Positions 4,391 through 32,988 of a stretch of DNA of 64,000 bases are shown in pieces (position 1 is the stretch's first letter; each line of letters begins with the position of its first letter). The notes beneath the pieces were generated by a model. That model was not told the DNA's origin. It saw only the letters and a list, made by a program, of their open reading frames with translations, and did no database searches. Source of the stretch: a virus; IMG/VR virus record IMGVR_UViG_2843860951_000002, positions 16,041 through 80,040 of that record; one strand, given 5' to 3'. Position numbers and translations under genes: made by a program.

Positions 4391-4519
4391 CAATCATCAC
4401 CAGCCCGGAACACCCGGCACCCGTGGCGTTGAAAGTGGATCTGGCATAGCATTACTTGCCCGCATTTCGCGGTCATAATCCTTCCTAACCACACTTTGCA
4501 CATGCCCGGCGATCTGCTT
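4391..4519. repeat. 129-bp perfect direct repeat, copy 1 (3' end of helper TMP gene)
   Basis: Base-by-base identical to 21256-21384. Confidence 0.97.
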
Positions 4520-9468: not shown

Positions 9469-10953
9469 TTAGCCCCCAGAAGCCACAGTGACAGTCACAC
9501 CCTGACCGCCCTGCAAGTTGACGATGAAGTAGCGCAGGATGCCCATGTATTTGACCTTCACATCGGCCTGCACATAACCAAGGGCTGTACGACTATCCGG
9601 GTTGTTGCTGGTGTCGCACACGACCGAATACGGAGTGCTACCGTCCGTGCTGCCAAGAACACCTTCCGTCAGCATATTGGCTAGGAAACCCAGCAGCGTA
9701 GCTTCAATGTTGGTGAACAGATCGGCATTAATCGTCTGGCCGATATAGGAACCCATCCCTGTGGCAAATGTCTCTGCCAGATAGTTCGTCAGGCGTGTGT
9801 AATTATCGCCATTTACTGCTGCGGATGTGGAGCAATTGATGCCACCACGCACAGCCCAATAGTTCCCGCCTGGTGCTGGATAACAGATCACATCAATCCC
9901 GGCTTCAAACAAGGCTGACAACTCTGCATCAGAATACGAAAGCAGCGTGCCAGAACTTGTCAAACCTGCCTTCTGGCTACCGATGATCCCGTAAAGCTGC
10001 TTGTTCAGCGTTGACTGTTCGGGAGAAAGAGCTGCCAGCAGCCCTGCTGCAAATGCAGCGGGAGATACCAGCATATTGCCGTTGGTATCATCATCCCACC
10101 AGATCCAGTCACCATGCATCACCTTCATGGCGTAACTGTCGGCACCCGCTCCGGAAAGCGCAGAAGTGGCGGCAGAAACACTCGTGCCAGATGGTAAGGC
10201 TGCAATCATATACAGCCCCTCACCCAGCCCGAAATCAATCTGGGCAGAGAACGAGGTTGTATCGGACAACCCGCACAGCAACCCAATGGCGCAACCCTGA
10301 TTACGCAGCGCATACATGCCCGTGCGGGATGTGCCGTCTGTGCCGATGAAGGCTGTTTCTGCAGGAGTGCCGCCGTCTGCACCGCCCGCCAGCGTGACAT
10401 TGCCAGCAGCAAGGGTCGTGCCGCCTGTAACGACAACCAGAGCCGATGCATCGGCATTGACCGCAGCAACAATATCGGCCCATGTCGTGCCCTGATACGT
10501 GCCCGTTCCCAACACGCTATGCGTCACAGTCAATGTCCACATAGCCGCGTTAAGCGTGCCCTGAGACAGCGTGGCAGTAATCGCGTTCCCTGCTGTGCCG
10601 GTATAGACTGCCGTGATCGTAGCGCCTGAAATCGTGCCGGTGGCAGCCTTATCTGTCCCATCGGTCACACGCACACAACGGAAGTCAGAAGCACCCTGAT
10701 ACACGCAGATATTGACGTTTACGCCCATATCTGTCGCCAGCGCCTGCTTAGCACCAAACACGAGCAGATAATCAGGCATGCCGCCAACCACGACTGGCGT
10801 ATTAACCGGCCCCCATGAGGATGTGCCAACAACACCAATGCGGCTGGATGAAACGCCATTCAGAAGCGTTACAGGCGCTTGGATCTGCACATACACATTC
10901 GGAACGGTAAGGGACGTGGTATTCAGCGCTCCCTGTTGGTAAATTTTCGCCAT
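9469..10953 (-). CDS. Contractile tail sheath protein
   Basis: ~494 aa; PNVYVQI, GVVGT.SWGPVNTPV, LAGGADG, RLTNYLA, ADVKVKYMGILRYFIVNLQGG. Confidence 0.88.
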   Translation of the reverse strand: MAKIYQQGALNTTSLTVPNVYVQIQAPVTLLNGVSSSRIGVVGTSSWGPVNTPVVVGGMPDYLLVFGAKQALATDMGVNVNICVYQGASDFRCVRVTDGTDKAATGTISGATITAVYTGTAGNAITATLSQGTLNAAMWTLTVTHSVLGTGTYQGTTWADIVAAVNADASALVVVTGGTTLAAGNVTLAGGADGGTPAETAFIGTDGTSRTGMYALRNQGCAIGLLCGLSDTTSFSAQIDFGLGEGLYMIAALPSGTSVSAATSALSGAGADSYAMKVMHGDWIWWDDDTNGNMLVSPAAFAAGLLAALSPEQSTLNKQLYGIIGSQKAGLTSSGTLLSYSDAELSALFEAGIDVICYPAPGGNYWAVRGGINCSTSAAVNGDNYTRLTNYLAETFATGMGSYIGQTINADLFTNIEATLLGFLANMLTEGVLGSTDGSTPYSVVCDTSNNPDSRTALGYVQADVKVKYMGILRYFIVNLQGGQGVTVTVASGG

Positions 10954-11159
10954 CACACGCCTCCAACGGGCACAGCAAAGCGCCGAATGTCTGCGCCGTG
11001 CTTCTTGATTTCATCGGGGTCTGAAATGGTCGCACCTACCGCATAGCCATATCCGGGCTGCGTCACGCGATAGAGCACGCTTCCCTGTGCCTGTGCGGTA
11101 AGCGCAACGGCAGCTTTCGCACTCGCCTGAGCGGGTGCGCTTCCCTGTGTATCCGTCAT
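10953..11159 (-). CDS. Small hypothetical phage protein
   Basis: Coupled to the sheath gene start. Confidence 0.6.
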   Translation of the reverse strand: MTDTQGSAPAQASAKAAVALTAQAQGSVLYRVTQPGYGYAVGATISDPDEIKKHGADIRRFAVPVGGV

Positions 11160-14048: not shown

Positions 14049-14269
14049 TATGCTGTCTCCAGCGGCGCTCCACGAGAACGCAGCAGTTCTATTTCTGCAG
14101 GGTTAGTCACAACCTCCCCTGCGCTCCATTCGAACCGGCCACGATTGAATTCTTCCTCAATGAAGCCAAAAGGCCGCAGAAGCCGCACTGCCTGCACAGG
14201 AGCGGGTTTTTTCTCGTCCTGCGCAGGAGGAACGGCTGGTTTAGCCGCCCCGCGCCGCGCTTGGCTCAT
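14048..14269 (-). CDS. Small hypothetical protein after the capsid gene
   Basis: 73 aa, coupled to the capsid stop codon. Confidence 0.6.
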   Translation of the reverse strand: MSQARRGAAKPAVPPAQDEKKPAPVQAVRLLRPFGFIEEEFNRGRFEWSAGEVVTNPAEIELLRSRGAPLETA

Positions 14270-15348
14270 CAGGCTGTAGCGCCCAGAGATGTTGCGCCAA
14301 GGCTTTCAATCACCACGCCACGCTTAAGGTAGCTGTTGGTCGCCGTGGGAATGATCGTTGTATTGGCCGTCAGGTCAGTTGGCAGAGCAAAGCCACCAAT
14401 CCAAGACCAAGACTGCGCAATGATCTGCCCCAGACGATCCAGCGGCGGACGGGTAACCATCAGCACATCATCAATATGCTCCACCTCACCCGGAAGATCG
14501 GCATATGCCTGCGCCATGTTGGCATAGTCGCCCTCGATCAGCGCACCCGCACCACAGATGATGGCACGATGAATCTGGCCCTGCCCCAGAGACGCCTGCT
14601 GCGGGGCTTCCGTGGTCGGGATAAACCGGATGCCCAGCAGTTCGAACACCTGACCTGTCCGGTATTCATCAGACCCATACTGACCGCGATACAGCAGCTT
14701 GAAATCAGGATCGCGGAATAGGCCGAGAAGCTGGGAGTTGTCGAGAAAGCAGTTGAAGCAACCACCAATCGTCGGAACGTTGTTGTTGCGCAACGCAGCA
14801 ACTGCCCCCAGCATGGTGTCGATGGTCAGGTAATCACCTGTCACCACATTGCCATTGGCGTCTTTGGAGCCCGATGCCAGAAGTCCTGCTGTTGTGGCAC
14901 GACCATTCGGGCGCAGAACCAGAGGTGCAGTTGCGGCAACCACCGCGGCATTCAATGCCGCATCAGTTGTCGCAACATTCTCAGAGAACGTCAGCGTGCC
15001 AGAAATACCGCCCGGTGCATTGCTGACGTTTGTCGCATCCGCAGCAACATTAACCAGCGTATAAGAGCCGGAACCAACGGTAACAGTCATGCCACTGGTT
15101 GCAGAAACCGGGATAACCTGCCCCATGCTATTCATGACGCGCTGGAAACCACGGATATCATCAACCTGAACGGTTGTGCCTGCGGCTGCCAGTGCTGTGG
15201 TTACGCGGGTGTTCCCGCCCAGATACCCACCAACACCACCAATAGCGCCACCGAACAAGGAATTACGCGCCAAACGGTCAAGAGACTGACGGGCGTTAAT
15301 ACCCAGAACCTGTGCATTTTCGACAAACTGGTTCGCAATTCCGACACC
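14269..15348 (-). pseudogene. Major capsid protein, 3' part (codons 106-464 of the restored gene)
   Basis: GVGIANQF..NA..LG..ARQSLD.LARN.LF..GGNTRV continues in frame from ..DLNQVTE (28885-29199) once the insert is removed. Confidence 0.88.
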
Positions 15349-15415: not shown

Positions 15416-16621
15416 TCAGTCAGTCTCCGGCAGCATCAATGATGCAATCTTTTGTATTTCCGCTTGTTGCTTGTGCTCCGTAAGTAGTGGGTGAGCATAA
15501 CGCTGAAGGGTCATATCAAAAGATGCATGCCCTAGTAATTTAGCTACATCTGTAACTGGCATTCCTCCACCAACCATAGCACTGGCAGCAAAATGCCTTA
15601 GGGCATGGAAATGATAACTAGGTCCTTTTTTCTCGGTCTCTAATCCAGCCCTGATTAAAAGATTACGCCATACTTCATGCATGTCAGCACGTGTGATCCC
15701 TTTGCTTCCTGTTTTGTCATGCATTTTGGAACGTTGCGTCTTGCAGAACAGCAAATTTCGATTATCTGGGATTAGGTGATGATCTAACCAATCAGTAAAT
15801 AACGCGCGTACATGTTGTGGCATTGGCACATCTCTAAATCCGGCGCGAGTTTTGGGGCCCTTTAGTTCATTCAGCGAAGTAAGAGAGTTTCTGATGCGTA
15901 AAATTCCATTCTGTAAATCAACATTTTGAACAGTAATCCCTGATATCTCACCAAATCTGAGTCCACAAAACACAGCGGAATGCACAAAAATCCGTAATTT
16001 CAGCCATGAACGAATAGACACATTTGGCTGCCGTATATCTACTGTCTTTATAAGCTGTTGTATTTGTTCAATAGAAAAAGTCGCGATCTTGTCAGATTCA
16101 CCGCCACGCCAATCTTTCAGCACTGCATCGAAGGGCTGCCCTTTGGCATAACCTCGTTTGATACCGAACTCGCAAACTTGCCTAGCCGTATTTAAGACTT
16201 CGCGTATCGTAACTTTTTTATATCCAGCTTTTGCCATTTTTCTTGCAATGGCATCACCTTCGTTAAAACCTAGATCTTTTTGCAAAATATCGCCGACTAC
16301 GGGGAGTATATGATTACGAATATACCCCTCACGTCCACGTCTATACAGTTCGCCAACACCGTGCCCTGCCTGTGAGCGAAGAATTGCATCGTCTATGAAT
16401 TCTTGAGCAACTCGCTCCATAGTGGCACTTTTCTTATCTGAAACATGCCGCCCCTCTAAAACATCGACCACAATAGACGATCGAAAGAGATCAGCTTCCT
16501 TCTTGAGTTTGAACGATTTTTGCGTTCTATTCCCCATCTCATCGGTATAATCCACTACCCATGCACTACGATTTTTTCCGCCCGTAACCCAATTACGCTT
16601 TCTAACTGATGCTCGTGCCAC
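15416..16621 (-). CDS. int: Tyrosine integrase of the satellite
   Basis: N-terminal arm-binding region; catalytic set GLRFGE, PKT, HALRH, LLGH, QRY present. Confidence 0.95.
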   Translation of the reverse strand: MARASVRKRNWVTGGKNRSAWVVDYTDEMGNRTQKSFKLKKEADLFRSSIVVDVLEGRHVSDKKSATMERVAQEFIDDAILRSQAGHGVGELYRRGREGYIRNHILPVVGDILQKDLGFNEGDAIARKMAKAGYKKVTIREVLNTARQVCEFGIKRGYAKGQPFDAVLKDWRGGESDKIATFSIEQIQQLIKTVDIRQPNVSIRSWLKLRIFVHSAVFCGLRFGEISGITVQNVDLQNGILRIRNSLTSLNELKGPKTRAGFRDVPMPQHVRALFTDWLDHHLIPDNRNLLFCKTQRSKMHDKTGSKGITRADMHEVWRNLLIRAGLETEKKGPSYHFHALRHFAASAMVGGGMPVTDVAKLLGHASFDMTLQRYAHPLLTEHKQQAEIQKIASLMLPETD

Positions 16622-19028: not shown

Positions 19029-19076
19029 AAACATAAATATGTGACGAGATTACCTATCTCGTCACATAACCCCAAT

Positions 19077-20420
19077 TTACCGAGCGAGGCTAAAGCGTTT
19101 GCTTGAAACCCAGCGAGCAGGCACAGGCCGGCTTTCAACCATAAGTTCCGTGAGCCCCCAAACCAAAGCGTCCATTCTGTCTGGGGAATTTCCTGATCCA
19201 GGCACCCATTCCACCATTTGATCTTCAAGGGTGGGAAAAGCGCCGACATGATGCACTTTTTCCTGCTCGTATAGTGCCATAATAGGTTCTGCCCTAACGA
19301 GCTTCCCCCGACTGGCATGCACGACTTTTACAGGTACAGTGCCGTCTTCACTGTGAATTGTTGCTGTAACCATCTCGCCGCCGAAATTGTTTTCAGCCAC
19401 AATTTTATCAGCGTTCCAGTGTTTATATGCCCGAACTGCTTGGCGAGCCCACCCGCCAGGGCTGTAACGGCCAGACAAATCCTCCAGAATGTATCCTTTG
19501 TTATCGGTACCGTAGGCGCAGACGATAATGCCAGTTTCATCAGACCTTTCATGAGATGATCCTGCTGGATCTATAGCAATAACGATTCGCCTGAATATCC
19601 GGTCTGATGATGGTTCAACACGAAGCGCATCCAGCATTTCACGAGTCCAGAGAGTTCCGCTTCCATCATCCAGTAATTCACCATCAAGTTCTTGCCTGCC
19701 CAACGTTGTGCCGCCGTATTTTTCCATAAGCTGGGCTAGAGCTGTACGGCTCAAATTCGCTGCATTATCCTGCGTCCGTGAACGTGTCACGACCGTCAAA
19801 TCACTCTTGGCCAGAGAACGAATAAGAGGAATCGGCTTTGGCGTAGTGGAGCACACAATTCTCGGTGCATCTCCCAGAGGACCATCTACGCGGATTGCCA
19901 TACTGAGCACGTCCCAAGCGTACTCACATTTTCCCCACGTTACGATTTCGTCGCACCATGCGCCATCAAGATTCAGGCCGCGTAATCGTTCCGGTTCTTC
20001 TGCTGAACATAGATGGCAAAGGGCTCCGTTTGGATACAACAATTTCCCTGTGGACGGCTCATAAGTAGGCCTGAACTCAGGCGGAGATATCGCCAGCATT
20101 CCACTAGGGCCTTCAATTTGAACACGGCGAAGGGCATTGGCCGTGGGGCCAACGATTGCCATTTCCTTCCGGCGCCCGCTTTCAATCTCACCACGAACCC
20201 ATTCAGCAGCGGTTCTCGTTTTCCCGCTGCCTCGTCCGCCGAGCAAGAGCCAGACAAACCAGTCACCTGCCGGTGGCAACTGGTCTGGACGAGCCCAGAA
20301 AGACCAGACGTAATGAAGCGCAGCCAGTTCTTCGGATGAAAGTGAACTGAGAACAGCACGGCGTTCATCAGGTGGCAGATCTGCCACCCGTGAAGCTAAA
20401 GATATTTTCAGATCGTCCAA
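19077..20420 (-). CDS. terL: Terminase large subunit of the satellite
   Basis: WARPDQLPP..W.VWLLLGGRGSGKT (Walker A), AWCDEI (Walker B), IAIDPA nuclease motif, DRMDALVW. Confidence 0.93.
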   Translation of the reverse strand: MDDLKISLASRVADLPPDERRAVLSSLSSEELAALHYVWSFWARPDQLPPAGDWFVWLLLGGRGSGKTRTAAEWVRGEIESGRRKEMAIVGPTANALRRVQIEGPSGMLAISPPEFRPTYEPSTGKLLYPNGALCHLCSAEEPERLRGLNLDGAWCDEIVTWGKCEYAWDVLSMAIRVDGPLGDAPRIVCSTTPKPIPLIRSLAKSDLTVVTRSRTQDNAANLSRTALAQLMEKYGGTTLGRQELDGELLDDGSGTLWTREMLDALRVEPSSDRIFRRIVIAIDPAGSSHERSDETGIIVCAYGTDNKGYILEDLSGRYSPGGWARQAVRAYKHWNADKIVAENNFGGEMVTATIHSEDGTVPVKVVHASRGKLVRAEPIMALYEQEKVHHVGAFPTLEDQMVEWVPGSGNSPDRMDALVWGLTELMVESRPVPARWVSSKRFSLAR

Positions 20421-20920
20421 GCGTCTCTCCGGCGTTCAATCTCTGCCATGATTTCTTTTTTGCGAGGCATCACTACTCGCCTGTCTTGTTCTGTCAGTTT
20501 GGCTGCTGGAAACAGAATAAGATTTCCAGGGTGAATAACTTCAAACGAAATTCCCTTGGCCATCAGCCTTTCGACTAGATCAGAAATACTTTCATGAGAT
20601 TGCTGCCGTTGGTCAGGGCTTGCATTCGTAAAGGTTGCATTCGCAAATACGATTGCAGCTAATTCGTTCTCAGGAGCATTTCGTACAGAAATAAAGAATA
20701 CTTCTGCTTCTTTCATTTCTTTATCATATTGCTCTTTAGCCATTTTTGCCCGAACAGCATCCCCTGAATGCTGCTCACGATAATAAATTCCCATCCTTTG
20801 CCGGAGAAGATTAAAACGTGGATCCAATACACGAAAGAGGTCGTGTCCACGTGCGCGCGCCTCTTTGTAGGCGATTGCTACCCTATCTTCGATTGAGAGA
20901 TTCGCATTTAGCTGCGTCAT
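20408..20920 (-). CDS. Hypothetical helical protein
   Basis: 170 aa, overlaps both neighbours. Confidence 0.6.
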   Translation of the reverse strand: MTQLNANLSIEDRVAIAYKEARARGHDLFRVLDPRFNLLRQRMGIYYREQHSGDAVRAKMAKEQYDKEMKEAEVFFISVRNAPENELAAIVFANATFTNASPDQRQQSHESISDLVERLMAKGISFEVIHPGNLILFPAAKLTEQDRRVVMPRKKEIMAEIERRRDAWTI

Positions 20921-21192
20921 TTTTTGCTACCCCATTTTTTTGCCCATTTTTGCAAAGACCGCGAATTAATGCTGTCGCGCATATTGCTCTGGATATCAGC
21001 GTTGATGCGCTTCAGTTGTTTTTTGCATTCTTCTTCGGATGCCATGCGTGCGTTGAATGTAAACGCATCTGGATACCTGTCCTGCAAACAAGAAACTGCT
21101 TGTTCAGGAGAGAGATTTTCATCAGCAATTTTTAGTAAAGTCATATCGTTCAGGCCCGCTTTGATAGCGGCCTGCTCTAATTTTGTGCACAT
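20917..21192 (-). CDS. Mini scaffold-like protein (homolog of the helper scaffold C-terminal domain)
   Basis: LEQAAIKAGLND..LLKIAD..AV..LQDRYPDAF-TFNARMASEEE vs helper AKALATKLGAVSPDDVVRLID..VMDAAKESRGYLF..PFNARKATPEE. Confidence 0.6.
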   Translation of the reverse strand: MCTKLEQAAIKAGLNDMTLLKIADENLSPEQAVSCLQDRYPDAFTFNARMASEEECKKQLKRINADIQSNMRDSINSRSLQKWAKKWGSKK

Positions 21193-21255: not shown

Positions 21256-21384
21256 CAATCATCACCAGCCCGGAACACCCGGCACCCGTGGCGTTGAAAG
21301 TGGATCTGGCATAGCATTACTTGCCCGCATTTCGCGGTCATAATCCTTCCTAACCACACTTTGCACATGCCCGGCGATCTGCTT
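21256..21384. repeat. 129-bp perfect direct repeat, copy 2 (3' end of satellite TMP gene)
   Basis: Identical to 4391-4519; similarity extends 9 bp further with two synonymous changes. Confidence 0.97.
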
Positions 21385-23349
21385 GCCGTCTAGATTCACA
21401 GTTACATTTATAGGTGCAGTTCCAAATAACCCTCCTGAGTATTTACCTAAAAACCCATCAATACTTTTTAATGTTTCATTGTTTTTTTCTAAGCTAGCTT
21501 GGAGTTTGTTCGCCCAAGGTGAGAGCACATCCCACGCAGCAAGGCCTGCAGCTAGCGGCATAAATCCTTTAGACGCTCCTTTAGTAACTGTGCCGAATTT
21601 CGACATTCCACTCGGAAGGTATTTTTCAAGAGCGCCACCTACCCAATGGAAGAACCCCACAGCTAAGGCTGTAACGCCTAGATCTACGCCGGCTGTTGCT
21701 AGAGGGGGCACAACATTGGGGTGTTTTTCCGCCTGCCGAGCAGTAAAATTCAGAGTATTGGTTAAAAGTCCCAGTGCGGCCAAACCATCTTTGAAGGGTT
21801 TATCTCCTAAGACAGTTGTGAGGTTTTTAATCGAAGCCGTAAACGCATCAATTTGAACAGACGGAGAATTCTTCATAATACCAACAATATCAGCATGAGA
21901 AAGCTTGCCAGTAGCTGAAGAATCTCGCTCAGCAAGAAGGTAAGTTCGCAGAGTCTCAATCATACTCACGCCTCCTGGAATGCGAGAAGCAACCTGAGAA
22001 AGGCCTTTTGCTTCCATAGCTAATTTCATTTCCGGCGAAGCATCAGTAAATTTTTTCCCATACACCTTAGCCATATATTTATCGATTTTAGGTTTGAGCG
22101 TTTTCTCAATAAATTCATGCGGCGAGAAAATAATCTTAGCCATGTCGTCTGGATCAAGTGCCCCATCCAACATCATGAACTGGCCCATGCCCATTTTCCG
22201 CAAATATTTGTTCGATTTAGCATCACCACCACCATGGATGATTCCCATATCGATCAACATATTTGCTCCTGCCTCTGACATTCTCCCCGCCATAAATTGC
22301 TGAGAAAACCCCTGAAGGCCGGTTCCTGCCCTTGCGGTCCCCATCGACTGAAGTAGTGGAATAAACCATGGCAAATCCTCAGCTTTAAGGGTTGCACCCG
22401 CTGCGCCCGCTGAACGACTAAATTGCAGATATTTCTTGAAATCAACATTTCCCAAAGTGGCAACTTCAGCAGCTAATAACAGAGTACCTAGATTCCGGGC
22501 GCCCTCCACATCCACTTCTTGTTTGCCGGTTTTTTTATCTGTTTTAACTAGAGCTCCACGAAATTCGGCTAGCTGCATAAGGGACTCAAGCTGTGCTGCA
22601 TAATTACCAGACTCAGGATGGTAAGCCCCTGCGGCAATGCCAATTGGTAGGAATGTCGGTAACAAAGTACGAGCTTCAGAAGCACTTTGAGTTATCCGTT
22701 TAAGAACAGAGTATACTTCCAAGTTCCCCATGACATCTGAACCGGCAACTTTCTTTTGAAGGTCCCGAGCCAAAACAATCGCTTTGTCAGCATCCTTAGT
22801 ATCTCCGCCATCATTAGCAATAAGGCGCTGCCGCATTTGCTGAAGATCCATAGCTGGCCTCAAAGCAGTCTTCGCCATATCTCCATACATCTGAAGATCA
22901 AACCCAACTGCCATGGCTTTATTAGCCGCATGTCCAAAGGAGGTCTCTGGCCTCCCAGGGACCCTTCTTCCCTCAGGCTCGGGAGTTAAAGGGGGTTTGG
23001 GCGAAGGGAGAGGAACCTCACTCGGCACCGACACCTTAGGATTTATAATCTGTACTTTCCGCAATTCCTCAAGAGCCTTACGAGCAGAACCCGCAGAAGA
23101 CGTAATATTATCCAGAGACGCCGACATTGTTCTTGTCTGGCTATCAATTCCTCCCAGATTGATACCTTCAATTTCTTTTAACTGCCTGCCAAGGCGAGAA
23201 AGATTGGCACGCCCTAAGGCCTCGAGAAGACTCCTAAGATCATTCCCTGCATCTAATGTCATGCGGAATTGACGCGCGATCTCTTTCAGTAACGCCGGCG
23301 CATTTGAAACAAGTTTATACTCGCCTTGGACTGCATAGCTTGTCGTCAT
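21262..23349 (-). CDS. Tail tape measure protein of the satellite, 695 aa
   Basis: Follows chaperones and a gp10-like gene; N-terminus MTTSYAVQGEYKLV resembles helper MTVEAYKIGVSLV; last 43 aa identical to the helper TMP. Confidence 0.85.
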   Translation of the reverse strand: MTTSYAVQGEYKLVSNAPALLKEIARQFRMTLDAGNDLRSLLEALGRANLSRLGRQLKEIEGINLGGIDSQTRTMSASLDNITSSAGSARKALEELRKVQIINPKVSVPSEVPLPSPKPPLTPEPEGRRVPGRPETSFGHAANKAMAVGFDLQMYGDMAKTALRPAMDLQQMRQRLIANDGGDTKDADKAIVLARDLQKKVAGSDVMGNLEVYSVLKRITQSASEARTLLPTFLPIGIAAGAYHPESGNYAAQLESLMQLAEFRGALVKTDKKTGKQEVDVEGARNLGTLLLAAEVATLGNVDFKKYLQFSRSAGAAGATLKAEDLPWFIPLLQSMGTARAGTGLQGFSQQFMAGRMSEAGANMLIDMGIIHGGGDAKSNKYLRKMGMGQFMMLDGALDPDDMAKIIFSPHEFIEKTLKPKIDKYMAKVYGKKFTDASPEMKLAMEAKGLSQVASRIPGGVSMIETLRTYLLAERDSSATGKLSHADIVGIMKNSPSVQIDAFTASIKNLTTVLGDKPFKDGLAALGLLTNTLNFTARQAEKHPNVVPPLATAGVDLGVTALAVGFFHWVGGALEKYLPSGMSKFGTVTKGASKGFMPLAAGLAAWDVLSPWANKLQASLEKNNETLKSIDGFLGKYSGGLFGTAPINVTVNLDGKQIAGHVQSVVRKDYDREMRASNAMPDPLSTPRVPGVPGW

Positions 23350-24666: not shown

Positions 24667-25095
24667 TTAAAAACTAACTTTTGCATCTGTTCGTTCAGGC
24701 GGATCTAGTAAATCCGCATAACAAAAAGTGCCCGGCAATATGGTGAAGGGGCCGCCAACATACGTGATTCCTTCTCCGCCTTTCAGGTCTGTTAAGTAGG
24801 CGACCTGCCCAGGGGGAATTGTCTTATTCCCTGTGCCAGTTTCAAAGCCATTTACTGGTGGAGATAGCTGAAGCTGCGGCGCTTCTGGATTTCCGGGGGT
24901 GTAAAATAGTGTCAGATTACCTTTACCACCATTACGGATTGCCATGACTGCGGCATCCTGTAGCTGATCAGGTACCGTGATAGTAGCTGTCCCGCAGATG
25001 GGAGCAGCGGGCACAGCCATCGCGCCACTTACGCCGCCTGGTGCATCTGGATAAGCACTTGGATTTTGTGATGTCGTGATAAACAATCTTTTCAT
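24667..25095 (-). CDS. Hypothetical Pro/Gly-rich, beta-rich protein
   Basis: Start MKRLF with AAGGA RBS; no family recognised. Confidence 0.6.
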   Translation of the reverse strand: MKRLFITTSQNPSAYPDAPGGVSGAMAVPAAPICGTATITVPDQLQDAAVMAIRNGGKGNLTLFYTPGNPEAPQLQLSPPVNGFETGTGNKTIPPGQVAYLTDLKGGEGITYVGGPFTILPGTFCYADLLDPPERTDAKVSF

Positions 25096-25106
25096 ATCGT
25101 TTCCTT

Positions 25107-25769
25107 TTATTCGCTGGACAAAACTCCAGATACCGCTTTGGCTGTCCACTTCCCTCCACGGGGAGTGCGGACAGATCGCTGGTCAAGTTCGTTCGCGATA
25201 GTTTGCAAACTCATTCCTTGGCCGCGCAATTCCTTGATCAGAGGGCGAACAGAAGCCCGGAACTCTTCTTTTTTCCGTCTCACAGCTGCTGTGCCGGCTT
25301 TCTGATCCACTTTTGGGCCGCCTCTATAACCACCTAGCTTAACGCCACGTGCCTTGGCAGCAGCCAACGCCTCTTTCGTGCGCTGGGATATGGCTTCCCG
25401 TTCTTGTTGGGCCACAAGCGCCATAATCCCTATAGTCATCTGATTGGCGCCGGGCATATCTGCGGCGACGAAATTGATGCCTGCGTCTTTTAAGCCGATA
25501 AGGAATGCAGCGTTACGAGAAAGCCGGTCGATTTTGGCTATGACAAGCGTTGCACCTGTCAGACGACATTCTTTCATGGCCAATTCTAATTGAGGACGGG
25601 CATCATTCTTCCCAGTTTCAATTTCAGTGAATTCGGCCAGCAATTCCCAATCACCGCCATTTAGGAAATTTCGGACAGTGTGCTGCTGTGCCTCTATTCC
25701 AAGACCAGATTTTCCTTGTTTTTCAGTGCTTACGCGGTAGTAGGCGACAAATTTTCCGTTCATGTTCAA
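25107..25769 (-). CDS. Serine recombinase (resolvase/invertase family)
   Basis: FVAYYRVSTEKQ, DRLSR, ERE.IS.RTK.AL..AKARG, C-terminal helical DNA-binding region. Confidence 0.93.
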   Translation of the reverse strand: MNMNGKFVAYYRVSTEKQGKSGLGIEAQQHTVRNFLNGGDWELLAEFTEIETGKNDARPQLELAMKECRLTGATLVIAKIDRLSRNAAFLIGLKDAGINFVAADMPGANQMTIGIMALVAQQEREAISQRTKEALAAAKARGVKLGGYRGGPKVDQKAGTAAVRRKKEEFRASVRPLIKELRGQGMSLQTIANELDQRSVRTPRGGKWTAKAVSGVLSSE

Positions 25770-26417: not shown

Positions 26418-26535
26418 TTTGCACGGAACTGCACGGAACCCGCACGGGTGAGTGATCCGCACGCACGGATCATCTCCCCTATAGGGTTCCGAGATCCATG
26501 CGCGCGCGGATTTGCACGGAACCTGCACAGATCAT
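26418..26535. repeat. Candidate satellite replication origin
   Basis: GCACGG at 26421, 26431, 26442, 26463 and 26514; hairpin TGATCCG-N6-CGGATCA; palindrome CCCTATAGGG; directly after the helicase gene. Confidence 0.6.
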
Positions 26536-27740
26536 TCCTCCCCTCCTCCATCAGTCCAAACTACACAGGAAGGCTTTCCATCGGGGGTTCGTATTCCCTG
26601 AGCAGTACCTCGGTTATCACGCCTAAATGTCGCCACCTCATATCCCTCGTGGAGTAGATCGTTCAGAACCTTCTTCTGCCCATCAGCCGTGCTTACGCCA
26701 CAGTCAGTCAAAAGCTTCCTGATAGACCGTTGATCTTTTGACAATTTAGGGCTCCAAGGGCCTACAGGACTTCCTTTCGCGACCCCTGCTTCAATAAGGT
26801 TCATTTGCTCCAATGAGACGCTATCCTGCGGAGGCATCCATGGCTTCATGACTGCCACTCGGTCACCATTATTTAGTTCGTAAGACTGCCGTTCAAACCA
26901 TTCTTCCTTGCCGATCGGAGCCGCATTGATCTTGGCCCCATCGACGCGAGAGAAGAACCGCCTATGGTCAGCCGGTAACCCAAAGTTTTGTGCTTCTGCT
27001 TCTGACATAACACTAACCGTCAACACTACGCGGGCGGCACCAACAACGGCAGATGCACCTCGGGACACGTCAGGATCTCCTGGAATGGCAGCTACTCCTT
27101 TCCGTGTATGATGCAAGAGAACGACGGCCATATCATACCGCACAGCCAAGGCACGGAAATGAGCCATTACCTTGCGAACTGCAGTATTGTCGTTTTCTTC
27201 TGCTTCATGCAATTCAACCAACGGATCCAGCATCAACACATCGGGCCTGCGCTTTTGGATTTCAGCTTCCATTTGTTTCATTGCCGGAGTGTCAAACATC
27301 TCTTTGCTATCTTTCTCCTGCTCAAGCAACGTTCCGATAGTCTCCGTGCCTACGCGGGCAACATACCCATTCAAATCTGCCGGGCACTTACCCATGAACC
27401 GCAAAGCAGCAGAGAACCGCCGACGCTGTTCGTCACGATCATCCTCAACATTGTAAGTCATGACCTTCATGCGCTTATCTGGGGTCAATCGCCCATAGCT
27501 CTCTCCTAGTGCAAGAGACGCTGCCCATCCCACCATTAGGCTTGACTTCCCCGAAGCAGGTGCACCCACCACAACAGTGACAGCACCACGCAGGAGGATC
27601 CCAGAAGCTACCCAAGGGCGGGAGGGAATATCGTTTTCGTCCCAGTTCTGATCATCTATTACAAGAGGGAGAACAGGCGTATGCTGCTTATTCTGCGCTT
27701 CAATTACGCTTTGGTGGACAATTTCTCCGATTTCATTCAT
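26532..27740 (-). CDS. RepA-like replicative helicase (AAA_25 type)
   Basis: Walker A GAPASGKS, NVED, LMLDPL, LLHHTRKG, SRGASAVVGAAR. Confidence 0.88.
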   Translation of the reverse strand: MNEIGEIVHQSVIEAQNKQHTPVLPLVIDDQNWDENDIPSRPWVASGILLRGAVTVVVGAPASGKSSLMVGWAASLALGESYGRLTPDKRMKVMTYNVEDDRDEQRRRFSAALRFMGKCPADLNGYVARVGTETIGTLLEQEKDSKEMFDTPAMKQMEAEIQKRRPDVLMLDPLVELHEAEENDNTAVRKVMAHFRALAVRYDMAVVLLHHTRKGVAAIPGDPDVSRGASAVVGAARVVLTVSVMSEAEAQNFGLPADHRRFFSRVDGAKINAAPIGKEEWFERQSYELNNGDRVAVMKPWMPPQDSVSLEQMNLIEAGVAKGSPVGPWSPKLSKDQRSIRKLLTDCGVSTADGQKKVLNDLLHEGYEVATFRRDNRGTAQGIRTPDGKPSCVVWTDGGGEE

Positions 27741-28519
27741 CCACCCATCCTTGCCCTCAACGCAGATGCGATGGTCTTTTCAACTTCAGTTGCACTTAGG
27801 CCTGCTTCTAACCCAGCAGCCGCCATGACAACTGCAATTTCATTGGCTGATAGATAACCTTCGGCAATGAACCTTCCTAATGCAAAGGTTTCGGCATTAA
27901 GAGTTTGATTTCTTAACCCATTGCCTGCGGTAGCAACCTGCCGAGCAGCTGAACGAAGAGCAGATTGGACATAGCGATTTGCGTTTTCTATGCCGTGTTG
28001 CAATCTTTCAAGTTTAGGTTTGGGAGGTGGCGAAGGTGTTGCAAGTTCTACTAGCCATGCCGGCCATTGCTGGATGCGAGCACGCTCAACTATCTCTAGC
28101 CCAGCCGCAGGCCACCAAATGATATATCCTCCATCAGCCCTAACATCCACGCCCGGCGCTATCCGGCCGGCACTGTTCCTCATGCCTTCTCGGTGCCTGA
28201 ACAATAAATGAAGCCCCCCAGAACGGGTGCGATTAATCCGGGTGCCGGTCAGTCGGGCGCAGTGTTCTTGGTAAAAATCGTCACCACCCTTTCCCCAGTC
28301 CAGATCAAGTGCATCAAACCCAGACACAGAACCTGTAACTGCTCCAATAAGAGCCCCTGGATGAGCGCGCCAGAGCATGGCAACAGTTTCCGGGCATTTG
28401 CTCGACAATTTAGTCCATTTGCAAGTAGGTCGCTTCTGCTCATCACAGGGGAATACCTGTACCCCGCAGCGCGCTAATTGTTGGGCATAGACCACAACAG
28501 AACCATTTGCCGTAGTCAT
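27737..28519 (-). CDS. Bifunctional primase/polymerase (Prim-Pol) with primase C-terminal region
   Basis: VFPC..KRP, ALDLD, RTRSGGLHLLF, GVDVRADGGYI, GLRNQTLN..F.LGR; start MTTANG by ATGA overlap. Confidence 0.88.
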   Translation of the reverse strand: MTTANGSVVVYAQQLARCGVQVFPCDEQKRPTCKWTKLSSKCPETVAMLWRAHPGALIGAVTGSVSGFDALDLDWGKGGDDFYQEHCARLTGTRINRTRSGGLHLLFRHREGMRNSAGRIAPGVDVRADGGYIIWWPAAGLEIVERARIQQWPAWLVELATPSPPPKPKLERLQHGIENANRYVQSALRSAARQVATAGNGLRNQTLNAETFALGRFIAEGYLSANEIAVVMAAAGLEAGLSATEVEKTIASALRARMGG

Positions 28520-28716
28520 GACTGCCCCGCTTCGCAGTTTTTCAACCACTGGCGCAGCGTTTCAGGTCGCGCACAAATAGTCTTCCCAATACGAAAGCAT
28601 GGGATACGCCCCTGCTCATTCCAATAGGCAACTTGACGAGGAGATGTGCCGAGGAACTCCGCAATCGCTCTCGTCCCTGCTAGAATTTCGACAGAGAAAG
28701 TAACACTATTTTTCAT
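28516..28716 (-). CDS. AlpA/excisionase-like winged-HTH protein
   Basis: G.RAIAEFLG.SPRQV.YW...GRIP.FRIGKTICAR...L.QWL; first gene inside the right att. Confidence 0.8.
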   Translation of the reverse strand: MKNSVTFSVEILAGTRAIAEFLGTSPRQVAYWNEQGRIPCFRIGKTICARPETLRQWLKNCEAGQS

Positions 28717-28879: not shown

Positions 28880-28892
28880 ACACATTCCGTGA
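28880..28892. repeat. Satellite att site, xis side
   Basis: ACACATTCCGTGA; core TTCCGTGA at 28885-28892. Confidence 0.88.
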
Positions 28893-29199
28893 CCTGATTG
28901 AGGTCCATCGTGTTACCGAACTGCGCAATTTCCAGCGTGTACTGTTCCACAGACCATTCCGTGGGAGACATGCCGTTATCGAAATTGCTGTTGGCCGCGG
29001 GATTGAGCGGAGTTTCAACCGGAGCCAGCAAACCACGACGGGTGTCCGTAATGGTCTGACCGATACGAGCCGGAAATTCCATGCGGTCAGCAACGGAACG
29101 AAAGCCAAGTTTGGATTCAAGGCTGGCTTCAAACGCACGGGCCAGAAAGCCCTGCTGGATAATGGGTTGTAGTGCTGCGGGGAAATCGGCAATTGCCAT
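28885..29199 (-). pseudogene. Major capsid protein, 5' part (codons 1-105)
   Basis: MAIADFPAALQPIIQQGFL.R.F...L..KLGFR..ADR.EF..IG.TIT.TR; follows the scaffold gene; frame diverts into element sequence (CVYILQ*) right after the att core. Confidence 0.9.
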
Positions 29200-29279: not shown

Positions 29280-29924
29280 TTAGGAGGGTGTAAAAAGTTT
29301 GGGGTTAAGCCCTGCTGCCTGCGCTTTGGCTGCCACTTCTTCTGGCGTTGCCTTACGCGCATTAAACGGTTCAGCCTTACCCGGCTTAGGGTCTGGCGCT
29401 GTTTTGGTGGTGCCGGTTTTGGTGCCGGGTTCAACGAGTTGAGTGAACAGATAGCCACGGCTTTCTTTCGCTGCGTCCATCACAGCATCCAGCCCTTCGA
29501 TCTGCCCATTCTCGCCCATCTTGACCTCAGAAAGATCAATCAGCCGCACCACATCATCGGGAGAAACAGCGCCCAGCTTGGTTGCCAGCGCCTTGGCTTC
29601 TGCCCGAATGACGGCCTGATCCGCTTGCGCCTTGGACTGCGCGACTGCCGTTTGCGCCTCAGTCTTCGAAGCTTCAACGGCCTGCTGTGCCTCAGCCAGC
29701 TTACCTTCAAAGTCGGACTTCTGCTGCGCAAGCTGCCCTTTGAAACCATCACGGGCTTTAATGGCCGCATCACGCTCAGCGCGCACTGCATCCCCATCTT
29801 CCCGCGCGGCCTTAAGTTCATTGCGCAAAGTCACAATGTCAGCACGCGCACGCGCCAATTCACGCGGCGTGTTAGGGTCAGCACCACCGTTCCCAGCATC
29901 AGCCGGGTTTGCATTGTCGGACAT
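29280..29924 (-). CDS. Capsid scaffolding protein
   Basis: Ala-rich coiled coil plus C-terminal D.VRLIDLS.VK..E.G.I.GLDA.M...KE.R.YLF; lies between portal and capsid genes. Confidence 0.8.
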   Translation of the reverse strand: MSDNANPADAGNGGADPNTPRELARARADIVTLRNELKAAREDGDAVRAERDAAIKARDGFKGQLAQQKSDFEGKLAEAQQAVEASKTEAQTAVAQSKAQADQAVIRAEAKALATKLGAVSPDDVVRLIDLSEVKMGENGQIEGLDAVMDAAKESRGYLFTQLVEPGTKTGTTKTAPDPKPGKAEPFNARKATPEEVAAKAQAAGLNPKLFTPS

Positions 29925-29971: not shown

Positions 29972-31489
29972 TCAGGCCGTAACCTGATGCGTCTCTGTTT
30001 TCCCAACACCTGCCGCCGTGCGCACCGCTTTGGTCGCGGGTGCGTCTGCATTTCGAACAGCTTGTATTGTTGGGTCTTGAAGTTCTGCCTGCACCCGCAC
30101 CCACTCAGTGGCCGGGTCAGCACAACCAGTCTTGGCGGCGAATATCGAACATGCGCTTTCGTTCGAAAGGATACCGCCCTTTACCGCTGTCACAAGAGCC
30201 TGTGACAACTGCAAAATCTCACCATCAGTTGCGGGAAAATACGGCGGCCATTCCAACGCCAGACCAGCATCATCTAGCGTGACACGCTCGCCATCAACCT
30301 GAATACCACCCTCAATTGCCAGAGAGAAATCGCAGATCATCCGATACAGCGAAAGTAAAGCACCTTCGCCATAAGACAGACGCATCCGGTCCGCGAGCCA
30401 CACGAGTGACTGACACATCATCTCCATAGCCCGGCCAGATTGCGCAGCACTGATCTTATCAGCATGCGCCCTGTTGCCGTGCAGGATTTCCAGAACCAGC
30501 GCACGCAATTCGCGCCAGTATTCCATCACCGTGCCAGCAGAACTGCCGTTGATCTCCAGCATTTTCGCGCTGGCTTTCTCGGGCAGAACAATCGCCGTTG
30601 CAGAGCCACCTTCGCTGGCTGGTGCATCACCACCACCCGCAGGGTCGCCACCTACACCAGTAATCACCAGCTTAGGGTCAGAGCAGTATTTCAGACCACG
30701 TCCAACCTGCGAAAGCTGGTAATCACCCTCAATAACCGTATCAATCGCACGCTCAAAAGTGCATGGCCCATCTGGATCCTGCCCTGGCGGCGCTAGGTTT
30801 CGCACCCACACAATCGGCACAAAGCCCAAGCCGTGCGGCGGACCGCTGCGCTCAGTATCCACTTCCGGGTCAGCATCACTGGTTGCTAGCCATGGCTTGT
30901 AAACGCGGCTTTCAGTTCGCGTCCATTCACGGCGATACCAGTAATCGACAGCGTCGCTTCCCTCTGGAATAGCATACCCCAGAGCACGCACCTGACGGCC
31001 CTTGATAAGATACTGGCTGACAACCTGCGCCAGATCACCCTTGGCGTCCCATTCAGGCTCCAGATATGGCGTATCCAGCACAGAAACCGACAAAGCCCCG
31101 TCAACCGCCTCAACCAGCAATGCGGCAGAACCGATAGAGCCTTTGAGAACGGCTTCCATTAGAACCGCAGGCAACTGGCACTCTCGTGTAATGCTGGAAA
31201 GTGCTTCTGCTGTGTCAGGGCTATCGCATTTCAGTGTTGGCCAATGCGTTTCACCGAATGTCAGGCTGGCCGCATCCTCAACCACAACTGTGCATAGATG
31301 CGAACGCACAGACGGCCTGCGCTGGGAGAGCGGGATATACTCATCGTTATTCCACTCTTTCGAAAACGGATACGGCAGCGCGTCATACATCGTGCCGTCA
31401 CGCACAGCAGACAGACGCAGCAACCGCTGGGCGCGTGCAGATACCTGCTGCGGCACCAGAATTGTTTCCTGTAATTCCTGCCAGTCCAT
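29972..31489 (-). CDS. Portal protein
   Basis: 505 aa right after TerL; HGLGFVPIVWVRN, LKYCSDPKLVI, SAAQSGRAMEM. Confidence 0.82.
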   Translation of the reverse strand: MDWQELQETILVPQQVSARAQRLLRLSAVRDGTMYDALPYPFSKEWNNDEYIPLSQRRPSVRSHLCTVVVEDAASLTFGETHWPTLKCDSPDTAEALSSITRECQLPAVLMEAVLKGSIGSAALLVEAVDGALSVSVLDTPYLEPEWDAKGDLAQVVSQYLIKGRQVRALGYAIPEGSDAVDYWYRREWTRTESRVYKPWLATSDADPEVDTERSGPPHGLGFVPIVWVRNLAPPGQDPDGPCTFERAIDTVIEGDYQLSQVGRGLKYCSDPKLVITGVGGDPAGGGDAPASEGGSATAIVLPEKASAKMLEINGSSAGTVMEYWRELRALVLEILHGNRAHADKISAAQSGRAMEMMCQSLVWLADRMRLSYGEGALLSLYRMICDFSLAIEGGIQVDGERVTLDDAGLALEWPPYFPATDGEILQLSQALVTAVKGGILSNESACSIFAAKTGCADPATEWVRVQAELQDPTIQAVRNADAPATKAVRTAAGVGKTETHQVTA

Positions 31490-32988
31490 TATCTGCTCAG
31501 TGAGAACCGTTTGTTTGTTACGAAGCGGGCGGGAGCTTTGACCACCGGCCCTGGCGCAAAAGTAAGCCCCAAAGCATCGGCAATATCAGGAGAACGCAGG
31601 CCGCGCTTTTTCATGGCATCCTTGCTTTCCACCAGCAGATTGCCGGAACTGTCTAGGCCGTACCGAACCGTTGAAAGCTCGGCGGCCAGATCTTCTGCAT
31701 TGTCTTTGCTGTCTGCCTGAATGGAGGCATCACCAGTGCGCAGCCAAGCGGCCACCTGCAGCCAGAGATAATCGCGCAGTTTCGCGGGCTTGGCGTCTTC
31801 CGCAACGACCTCATCAGGCGCACGGCAGGCCACGTTCACATCCACGACCGGCAGCTTCTGTTCACGCAACCGATCAGCAACGCCAGCGCCCACACCAACA
31901 ACGTCAACGTAAACGCTGTCAGCCTTCCAGCGGCGAAAGAAATCTGCCGCCATCCCGGCTGTGGCCATCGTATCCTGCTTGGCTCTAATTTCTATTTTCT
32001 CAACACGCGGACCTTCGCGTAGGACAAATGTTGTTCTGTCGTCACCAAAGCGGGCAACGTCCACACCCAGCCTGCGCTCGTATTTTCCGTTCGCTGGTTC
32101 ACGTGCAAGCGCAGCCTCTGCCGTTTCCAACGGAATCAGAACGTCGTCGTCCTGCTTAGGGAAATCCCCATCAGCACGAACGCGAACAACATTTGACCCT
32201 TCCCCATACTTGCGCACCAAATTGGCGCGGTAGCTGGGGTCAACCAACGGGCTGTCAGAACAGCGAAAGTGAAGCGCCGTATACAGCGCCCTGTCCTGCT
32301 TCTGGGAGCGCGCAAAAAAGCCTGTGTTGCGCGTTGGGTTGCCAACCATGAGCAGGCGCGCACCGTGAGAAGAAAGCGCGCCTTCCGCAACCTCGAATAT
32401 CTCGTCGGGAACGCCGCTCGCTTCTTCAATCACGAACATGATTGAGCCGCCAGACGATGAACGCTCTACCGCCCTGTTATCATCCGTGATCTGCACGTCA
32501 GAAGCATGAAAGCCCTGCAATGCGTCAGGAGATTCCCGGCGGCTTGTGCGGGCAACGGCATACCACTCAGCGGGCTGCCCTTTGTCGGATATCCTGTCCT
32601 GATTGCGGTCAAACAGGTTTGCCAGCCACAATTCTTCCGGCAGGCCATCTGCACGCGCTCGCTCTTCAGACCGACGCCCCCACTTGGAAAGCTCTGCCCA
32701 AAGAACGTTGTAAAGCTGCGATGCAGTCGGAGCCGTGCATGGAATGCGACAGTATTCGTAACACTCCAGATGCCACCAGATCGCTGCAGAAGTAGAACCC
32801 GACTTGCCGACACCATGACCTGCCCGCACCGACACCTTGGCACCCGGCGGGGCAATAGCCTCCAGCAACTGACGCTGTTGAGTAGTCGGATTAAGCCCCA
32901 AGCGCTGACGGGCATACAGAACAGGATCTTTACGCCAGATACCGCGCAGCTTGCGGTAATCAGCAATATCAGCCTGAGTTAGAGCCAT
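31489..32988 (-). CDS. terL: Terminase large subunit (helper)
   Basis: VSVRAGHGVGKS (Walker A), VIEEASGV (Walker B), LGVDVARFGDD, RSPDIADAL; start set at MALTQ. Confidence 0.93.
   Translation of the reverse strand: MALTQADIADYRKLRGIWRKDPVLYARQRLGLNPTTQQRQLLEAIAPPGAKVSVRAGHGVGKSGSTSAAIWWHLECYEYCRIPCTAPTASQLYNVLWAELSKWGRRSEERARADGLPEELWLANLFDRNQDRISDKGQPAEWYAVARTSRRESPDALQGFHASDVQITDDNRAVERSSSGGSIMFVIEEASGVPDEIFEVAEGALSSHGARLLMVGNPTRNTGFFARSQKQDRALYTALHFRCSDSPLVDPSYRANLVRKYGEGSNVVRVRADGDFPKQDDDVLIPLETAEAALAREPANGKYERRLGVDVARFGDDRTTFVLREGPRVEKIEIRAKQDTMATAGMAADFFRRWKADSVYVDVVGVGAGVADRLREQKLPVVDVNVACRAPDEVVAEDAKPAKLRDYLWLQVAAWLRTGDASIQADSKDNAEDLAAELSTVRYGLDSSGNLLVESKDAMKKRGLRSPDIADALGLTFAPGPVVKAPARFVTNKRFSLSR

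Follow-up and report, generated by a model that had tools for sequence, protein, structure and literature searches.

Does a small satellite-encoded protein that resembles the C-terminal part of a phage scaffold change the heads that its helper assembles? The question arises from a 64,000-nucleotide stretch of viral DNA (positions 16,041 to 80,040 of IMG/VR record IMGVR_UViG_2843860951_000002, hereafter the window), in which a 91-residue ORF had been described as a mini-scaffold that might redirect or interfere with capsid assembly by the helper phage. Translation of the ORF from its ATG to its stop codon confirmed a minus-strand gene at 20917-21192, whose product is here called P0001. To our knowledge, scaffold mimicry by satellites has been proven experimentally only in Staphylococcus aureus, with the proteins CpmB and Rcm.

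The satellite and its helper prophage

The P0001 gene sits on an insert of ~13.5 kb, the satellite, which splits the major capsid gene of a helper prophage. The satellite resides in an Acetobacter-type prophage, and its gene set comprises a tyrosine integrase, a Prim-Pol-like primase, an AAA_25 helicase, a serine-recombinase-like gene, a tail cassette, and terL. The helper genes for TerL, the portal, and a PF06810 scaffold lie on one side of the insert, and the 3' part of the capsid gene lies on the other. The features of the satellite and the surrounding helper genes are as follows.

14269..15348, minus strand: helper major capsid gene, 3' part; product shares 79% identity with the Komagataeibacter phage phiKX1 coat protein
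15416-16621: satellite tyrosine integrase
26532-28549: satellite Prim-Pol-like primase and AAA_25 helicase
28885..29199, minus strand: helper major capsid gene, 5' part, 105 codons, severed by the satellite
29280..29924, minus strand: helper head-scaffolding protein, 214 aa, PF06810 (Pfam 2.1e-21, 77 bits; phrog_194)

In a near-identical phage contig that lacks the insert (L009), the scaffold gene is followed directly by one intact capsid gene of 464 aa at L009:6726-8120, and the junction obtained by rejoining the split gene of the window, NQVTE joined to GVGIANQF, is that of the intact L009 protein. Homologues of the helper scaffold in Acetobacter, Komagataeibacter, and Gluconobacter are annotated as scaffolding protein. 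Relatives of the helper have genomes of 50-53 kb compared to the ~13.5 kb of the satellite, a ratio within the range of known satellites that use small heads.

The same satellite was found in the same split capsid gene at positions 888038-908313 of CP021524.1 (L070), a complete 2.9-Mb NCBI chromosome. In an IMG/VR prophage (L035:2501-3747), a helper-type capsid gene breaks off after residue 195 and is fused directly to the C-terminal part of a gene homologous to the 495-aa ORF of the window (9469-10956), which occupies the tail-sheath position by synteny with phiKX1; this fusion is a deletion that took out head-completion genes.

Direct repeats rich in GCACGGAAC, found at 26421-26541 just upstream of the AAA_25 helicase gene, look like the iterons of a satellite replication origin. 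A resolvase-type serine recombinase of ~190-220 aa is conserved, being encoded at 25107-25769 on the minus strand of the window and having homologues in L002, L005, and L007. A 160-aa satellite protein, encoded at 24667-25149 on the minus strand, has homologues close to the mini-scaffold gene in L005 and L006, with a weaker one in L007, and may belong to the same helper-exploitation module as the mini-scaffold.

Genomic context of the P0001 gene

Examination of the minus strand around P0001 revealed closely packed genes with overlapping ends, listed here in the direction of transcription.

21262..23349, minus strand: satellite 695-aa tape-measure-like gene, ending 70 nt upstream of P0001; homologues in L002 and L008
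20917..21192, minus strand: P0001, 91-aa mini-scaffold gene; stop codon at 20917-20919
20408..20920, minus strand: 170-aa partner gene, whose start overlaps the P0001 stop (ATGA)
19077..20420, minus strand: satellite large terminase (TerL), Pfam Terminase_6N/6C; gene start overlapped by the end of the 170-aa gene
19038..19068, minus strand: terminator-like hairpin with a 13-bp stem and T run, closing the operon after terL

A sequence scan of the minus strand from the tape-measure gene to P0001 detected no promoter-like or terminator-like site. This result, together with the hairpin after terL, indicates that a single late transcript ends with the three genes for P0001, the 170-aa protein, and TerL; the satellite tape measure is predicted to be part of the same transcript.

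The neighboring gene products carry ends that match those of the helper. The last 14 C-terminal residues of the satellite TerL resemble those of the helper TerL (satellite PARWVSSKRFSLAR at 19077-19130 and helper PARFVTNKRFSLSR at 31489-31540, both on the minus strand). The last 43 residues of the 695-aa satellite and 773-aa helper tape-measure-like proteins are identical, and the shared ends are encoded on the minus strand at 21262-21393 in the satellite and 4397-4530 in the helper (133/138 nt compared). Since these ends match the helper, plugging into helper assembly appears to be a theme of the element. Counting P0001, at least three satellite proteins bear helper-matching modules.

The location of P0001 beside the satellite terL in the predicted transcript, as well as the helper-like tail of the satellite TerL, would be in keeping with a portal or nucleation factor, that is, a protein whose scaffold-derived part binds the helper portal and recruits the portal or the satellite terminase, such that satellite DNA is packaged. 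A role of scaffolds in portal incorporation is documented for other phages (PMC5529062), and the partner of the PF06810 C-domain and tail could be the portal instead of the coat. The best-studied scaffold C-termini nonetheless bind coat protein (PMC5644958), and we regard such a function of P0001 as rather improbable.

The position just upstream of terL could also be that of a small-terminase-like or other DNA-packaging accessory protein, and a non-significant tblastn match (E 0.3) to a gene that carries the annotation terminase small subunit in a podophage points the same way. However, P0001 gave no Pfam or PHROG terminase match, its significant homology is to scaffolds, and in L003, L006, and L008 the mini-scaffold gene is found downstream of terL. 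A packaging accessory is on these grounds very unlikely.

The 170-aa partner itself has no Pfam or PHROG match. Its C-terminal part is conserved (G-I-x-F/L-E-V...P-A-x-x-L-T...), and in the Atlas features the language model pointed weakly, with a score of 0.84, to clusters of TubC_N docking domains.

The P0001 family

Relatives of P0001 were sought by an exhaustive phmmer search, which returned 13 proteins of 70-138 aa, and by a profile search, which returned another three; in addition, a tandem paralogue was found in L007. The family has 18 members and occurs only in Prim-Pol/AAA_25/TerL satellites. The different contexts (8/8) are small elements with a Prim-Pol or Toprim protein, an AAA_25 helicase, terL, and usually a resolvase, and portal or capsid genes were found in none of the eight. 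Loci retrieved through the satellite TerL were ordinary phages and held no member of the P0001 family. No Pfam or PHROG family was found for these proteins, and blastn and tblastn searches of P0001 against phage records and E. coli genomes returned nothing significant.

The members share an invariant core, L-E-x-A-A-x-x-A-G-L-x-D-x-D-L-L-K-x-A...P-x-x-A-V-x-x-L-x-x-R-[YF]-P-x-A-F, followed by a motif around [FV]-[DN]-A-R-T-x-S-x-x-[DE]-[YF]. Two tandem paralogues, P0034 and P0035, are encoded at L007:10001-10562, and the FDARTAS tail motif is present only in the second; P0003 (138 aa) has two copies of the N-terminal module and then one tail. The trio of P0001, the 170-aa gene, and terL was also detected in at least five sequencing runs, on short contigs, the length of the 170-aa gene product being 161-170 aa.

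As a truncated homologue of a phage gene, P0001 might be a decaying scaffold-gene remnant without present function. Several observations argue against this possibility. The 18 members, which are 30-50% identical, have intact reading frames and keep invariant residues within their scaffold-like motifs, and tandem and internal module duplications occur. In addition, the exact P0001 protein is found on 16 contigs from several samples with 1-4 nt differences, all of them synonymous, while the 170-aa neighbor on those contigs is 90-98% identical; this comparison is biased by look-up with the exact protein and counts for little. We consider a remnant to be scarcely credible.

A homologue of the 170-aa gene directly follows the mini-scaffold gene in six of the eight contexts, namely the window, L002, L003, L004, L005, and L008. 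Such tight, translationally coupled pairing, together with an extra C-terminal helix of P0001 that has no counterpart in scaffolds, favors an adaptor in which the scaffold-derived domain and tail would act as a capsid address and the C-terminal helix would bring the 170-aa partner into the procapsid, with no role in head size. The partner might further be cargo that is packaged and ejected into the next host, which would make P0001 a means of internal-protein delivery built from a scaffold fragment. Both forms presuppose that P0001 binds a partner that has no recognizable function, and an adjacent partner is missing in L006 and L007. The adaptor seems quite unlikely to us, and the delivery of cargo by it equally so.

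Homology of P0001 to the C-terminal part of PF06810 scaffolds

The original prediction had matched three blocks of P0001, by eye, to collinear blocks in the C-terminal domain of the helper scaffold. Direct comparison of the two proteins did not exceed chance. BLASTP found no alignment between P0001 and the helper scaffold at E<=100, and the Smith-Waterman score of 35 against the whole helper scaffold was reached by 16% of shuffles (p 0.16), the best alignment covering the FNAR block alone. The same method yielded p 0.0125 against a scaffold C-terminal piece that had been picked after the fact. With hhalign against close relatives of the helper scaffold (alignment A2), only block 3, the tail, was aligned (P 0.0024), and an HMM of the C-domain made from a narrow scaffold set produced mostly non-significant scores. 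The PF06810 Pfam model matched none of the 14 members of alignment A1, even at E<=10.

The family was also compared to a more diverse set of scaffolds. These were taken from just upstream of 31 helper-type capsid genes, whose capsid proteins are 39-99% identical, and gave an alignment of 21 sequences (A4); the P0001 family alignment comprised 16 sequences (A3). Comparison of A3 to A4 by hhalign resulted in a probability of 95% and an E value of 4.1e-8 over 67 columns, with a score of 51.2. As controls, 150 column permutations of A3 scored 10.7 +/- 2.5 with a maximum of 19.3, and the reversed A3 profile scored 22.4. All three blocks were aligned in collinear order, blocks 1 and 2, in P0001 residues 1-44, with scaffold residues 106-160, and block 3, in residues 45-65, with 185-206. 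The blocks proposed by eye were thus recovered in full at the level of profiles, and a comparison with scaffold families, which had been named at the outset as one way to check the idea, supported its structural part; it is as a pairwise similarity that the match does not stand. The corresponding segments are listed below.

21061..21192, minus strand: P0001 residues 1-44, three short helices (4-12, 17-22, 29-39), homologous to the PF06810 globular C-terminal domain
20998..21060, minus strand: P0001 residues 45-65, tail motif F-[DN]-A-R-x-x-S-x-x-[DE]-[YVFC] and helix start, common to scaffold C-terminal tails
20920..20997, minus strand: P0001 residues 66-91, family-specific extension of the long helix (53-90) in the AF2 model and alignment
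29445..29612, minus strand: scaffold residues 105-160, counterpart of P0001 residues 1-44 (hhalign)
29307..29372, minus strand: scaffold residues 185-206, tail motif, counterpart of P0001 residues 45-65 (hhalign)

P0001 begins at about scaffold residue 105-106 and lacks the N-terminal coiled coil of ~100 residues. Relative to the scaffold, it has two deletions, which remove a 10-residue hairpin (VKMGENGQIE) and a Pro/Thr linker of ~24 residues. The absence of coiled coil and linker, anticipated from the first reading of the ORF, is evident in the alignment, the AF2 model, and the hhalign result. Residues 66-91 close with a basic K-[YW]-G-x-K motif that has no counterpart in scaffolds.

HMMER searches gave results in keeping with the profile comparison. 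When the family HMM was run at E<0.01 against 10,069 six-frame ORFs of all the loci collected here, the sole non-family matches were two scaffolds. An HMM built from the scaffold tails alone recognized 13 of the 17 members of the family that were scored with an empirical p <0.05, the best being near 1e-4, and six family genes were among its top nine non-scaffold matches in 3,315 six-frame ORFs. The scaffold tails come in two flavors, ...PF[DN]AR[KS]A[TS]xx[DE]Y... and ...[KR]xAx[DE]M[TS]xxE[YW]xxA[KR]...., and both are also present in the P0001 family. The C-domains of the diverse scaffolds carry AELKAxAxRAGMxDLDGLKLxD, which is close to the family N-terminal core. Among scaffolds whose capsid proteins are 39-99% identical, the tail is conserved while the linker varies, as would be expected of a binding motif.

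The profile-profile score, its controls, and the HMMER checks together establish homology at the family level, and P0001 is almost certainly homologous to the C-terminal part of the PF06810 helper-type scaffold. The PF06810 scaffolds, also known as minor structural protein GP20, correspond to P0001 over the C-terminal globular domain and tail motif, whereas the coiled coil, hairpin, and linker are missing from P0001. By the Pfam model P0001 lies outside PF06810, and it is most simply regarded as a truncated homologue. The two also differ in gene place, the PF06810 scaffold gene being located between the portal and capsid genes and P0001 being found in satellites beside terL.

Predicted structure

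The AF2 model of P0001 made with the family alignment had a pLDDT of 83, compared to a poor single-sequence model with a pLDDT of 53. Following the three short helices, the former has an extended segment at residues 45-52, which holds the tail motif, and then the long helix at 53-90. A Foldseek comparison had also been put forward with the original prediction as a check. Against the BFVD viral models, it returned a "Scaffold protein" as the top match and a "Minor structural protein" as the second, the former with a probability of 0.97 and an E value of 0.16, and against the PDB the best E value was 1.2; the identity of the top viral match agrees with the proposal, and the E values fall short of it. 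An ESM Atlas shape search placed a PF06810 cluster first (TM 0.45), and the language-model neighbors were "phage scaffolding protein," PF06810, and DUF4355 clusters at 0.92-0.94. The Foldseek, Atlas, and language-model pointers are each below the usual significance alone, and are not independent of each other. A search of the family profile against all PDB chain sequences gave chance-level matches (E >=0.31) that included no scaffold or CpmB chain, and in a wide VIA search the long helix of P0001 matched generic coiled coils only, with Z ~5.

Comparison to known satellite proteins

The closest parallel in function would be CpmB (gp6) of SaPI1, whose helper 80alpha uses the scaffold gp46. CpmB has a C-terminal motif in common with the helper scaffold, binds the same coat site, and brings about T=4 instead of T=7 heads; the part common to CpmB and gp46 is a helix-and-hook of 16-21 residues (PMC5644958). 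Like P0001, CpmB is encoded by a satellite, is small and all-helical, has a short conserved motif in common with the helper scaffold, and lacks most of the remainder of that scaffold. Each has a conserved partner gene, with cpmA and cpmB always paired (PMC6893505) and P0001 accompanied by the 170-aa gene, and in both systems the satellite is ~1/3 to 1/4 the size of the helper. CpmB and P0001 nevertheless have no sequence relationship, and the RIIK motif is absent from P0001. The helper scaffold families also differ, being PF14265 for 80alpha gp46 and PF06810 for the scaffold of the present helper. Whereas CpmB keeps just the helix-and-hook, P0001 keeps the whole globular domain and tail, and the host of P0001, unlike that of SaPI1 CpmB, is an alphaproteobacterium.

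A second parallel is Rcm of SaPIpT1028, which binds the capsid protein and is experimentally both necessary and sufficient for small capsids. Its motifs are common to a larger part of the phi7206 scaffold, and it was proposed to compete for the major capsid protein (PMC12409344). Rcm resembles P0001 as a satellite protein having motifs in common with a larger scaffold portion; the families and hosts differ, and the function of Rcm, unlike that proposed for P0001 on the basis of its sequence, is proven by experiment.

Other satellites reach the same end, small heads from helper coat, with P4 Sid, PLE TcaP, and SaPIbov5 Ccm (PMC7552001, PMC10945586, PMC6893505). These are external cages or capsid-protein homologues, in contrast to the scaffold homologue P0001, and none of the searches of this analysis detected any similarity of P0001 to Sid, TcaP, or Ccm.

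Proposed role of P0001

The above considerations lead us to propose that P0001 is a satellite-encoded, truncated scaffold homologue that acts as a CpmB- or Rcm-like competitor and yields procapsids that are smaller, or that the helper cannot use. We put the chance that this reading is right at about even. The retained part of P0001 would be the scaffold end that touches the shell, by analogy with P22 gp8, phi29 gp7, and 80alpha gp46, each of which binds coat protein through its C-terminus (PMC5644958). The scaffold-derived part would then dock on the helper coat protein at the usual site of the helper scaffold, and P0001, having a different oligomerizing part in place of the coiled-coil core, would alter the spacing, curvature, or nucleation of the coat. 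The outcome would be smaller procapsids that are fit for the 13.5-kb satellite and not for the ~50-kb helper, or that are otherwise useless to the helper. The 170-aa partner might have an auxiliary role like that of CpmA.

The steps of this proposal differ in their likelihood. P0001 probably binds whatever the C-terminal part of the scaffold binds. Coat binding by the PF06810 C-terminus is itself a premise adopted by analogy. That defined small capsids result from P0001, as they do from CpmB and Rcm, is conceivable, and we lean somewhat against it.

Two features run counter to the proposed competitor. The tail motif lies in the middle of P0001 and is followed by a 38-residue helix, whereas it is C-terminal in scaffolds and in CpmB, and the P0001 gene is located in the tail and packaging part of the operon beside terL, not near head genes. 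Size redirection is, moreover, dispensable for satellites, as the DNA of SaPIs is packaged into large heads, too, in the form of concatemers (PMC6893505).

The evidence for scaffold homology would apply equally to a protein of pure interference, in which the fragment caps the scaffold-binding sites of the coat and derails the assembly of helper procapsids, with no defined small capsid as the result. Loss of the oligomerizing coiled coil is indeed the expected look of such a dominant-negative fragment. On the other hand, a satellite having its own TerL needs helper-built heads for transfer, such that abolishing heads would be harmful to it, and both the conserved partner and the long helix peculiar to the family speak for a constructive role. 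We hold pure interference to be unlikely, and favor the competitor that yields altered procapsids.

Significance

P0001 marks the likely business end of the PF06810 scaffold, that is, the globular C-domain together with the tail motif. As the helper and satellite are neighbors on a single chromosome, the coat gene and both proteins are available for study, and the pair of 91-aa and 170-aa proteins offers a small, tractable test of how internal scaffolds set capsid size. The presence of P0001 together with the helper-like ends of TerL and the tape measure suggests that the satellite taps simultaneously into the assembly of the head, the tail, and the packaging machinery. P0001 is a putative, nonhomologous counterpart of CpmB and Rcm; its origin is independent of theirs and lies in another scaffold family, in an alphaproteobacterial system. 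If the proposed role is true, the P0001 family would represent an independent origin of scaffold mimicry, from PF06810, in the phage-satellite pairs of acetic acid bacteria.
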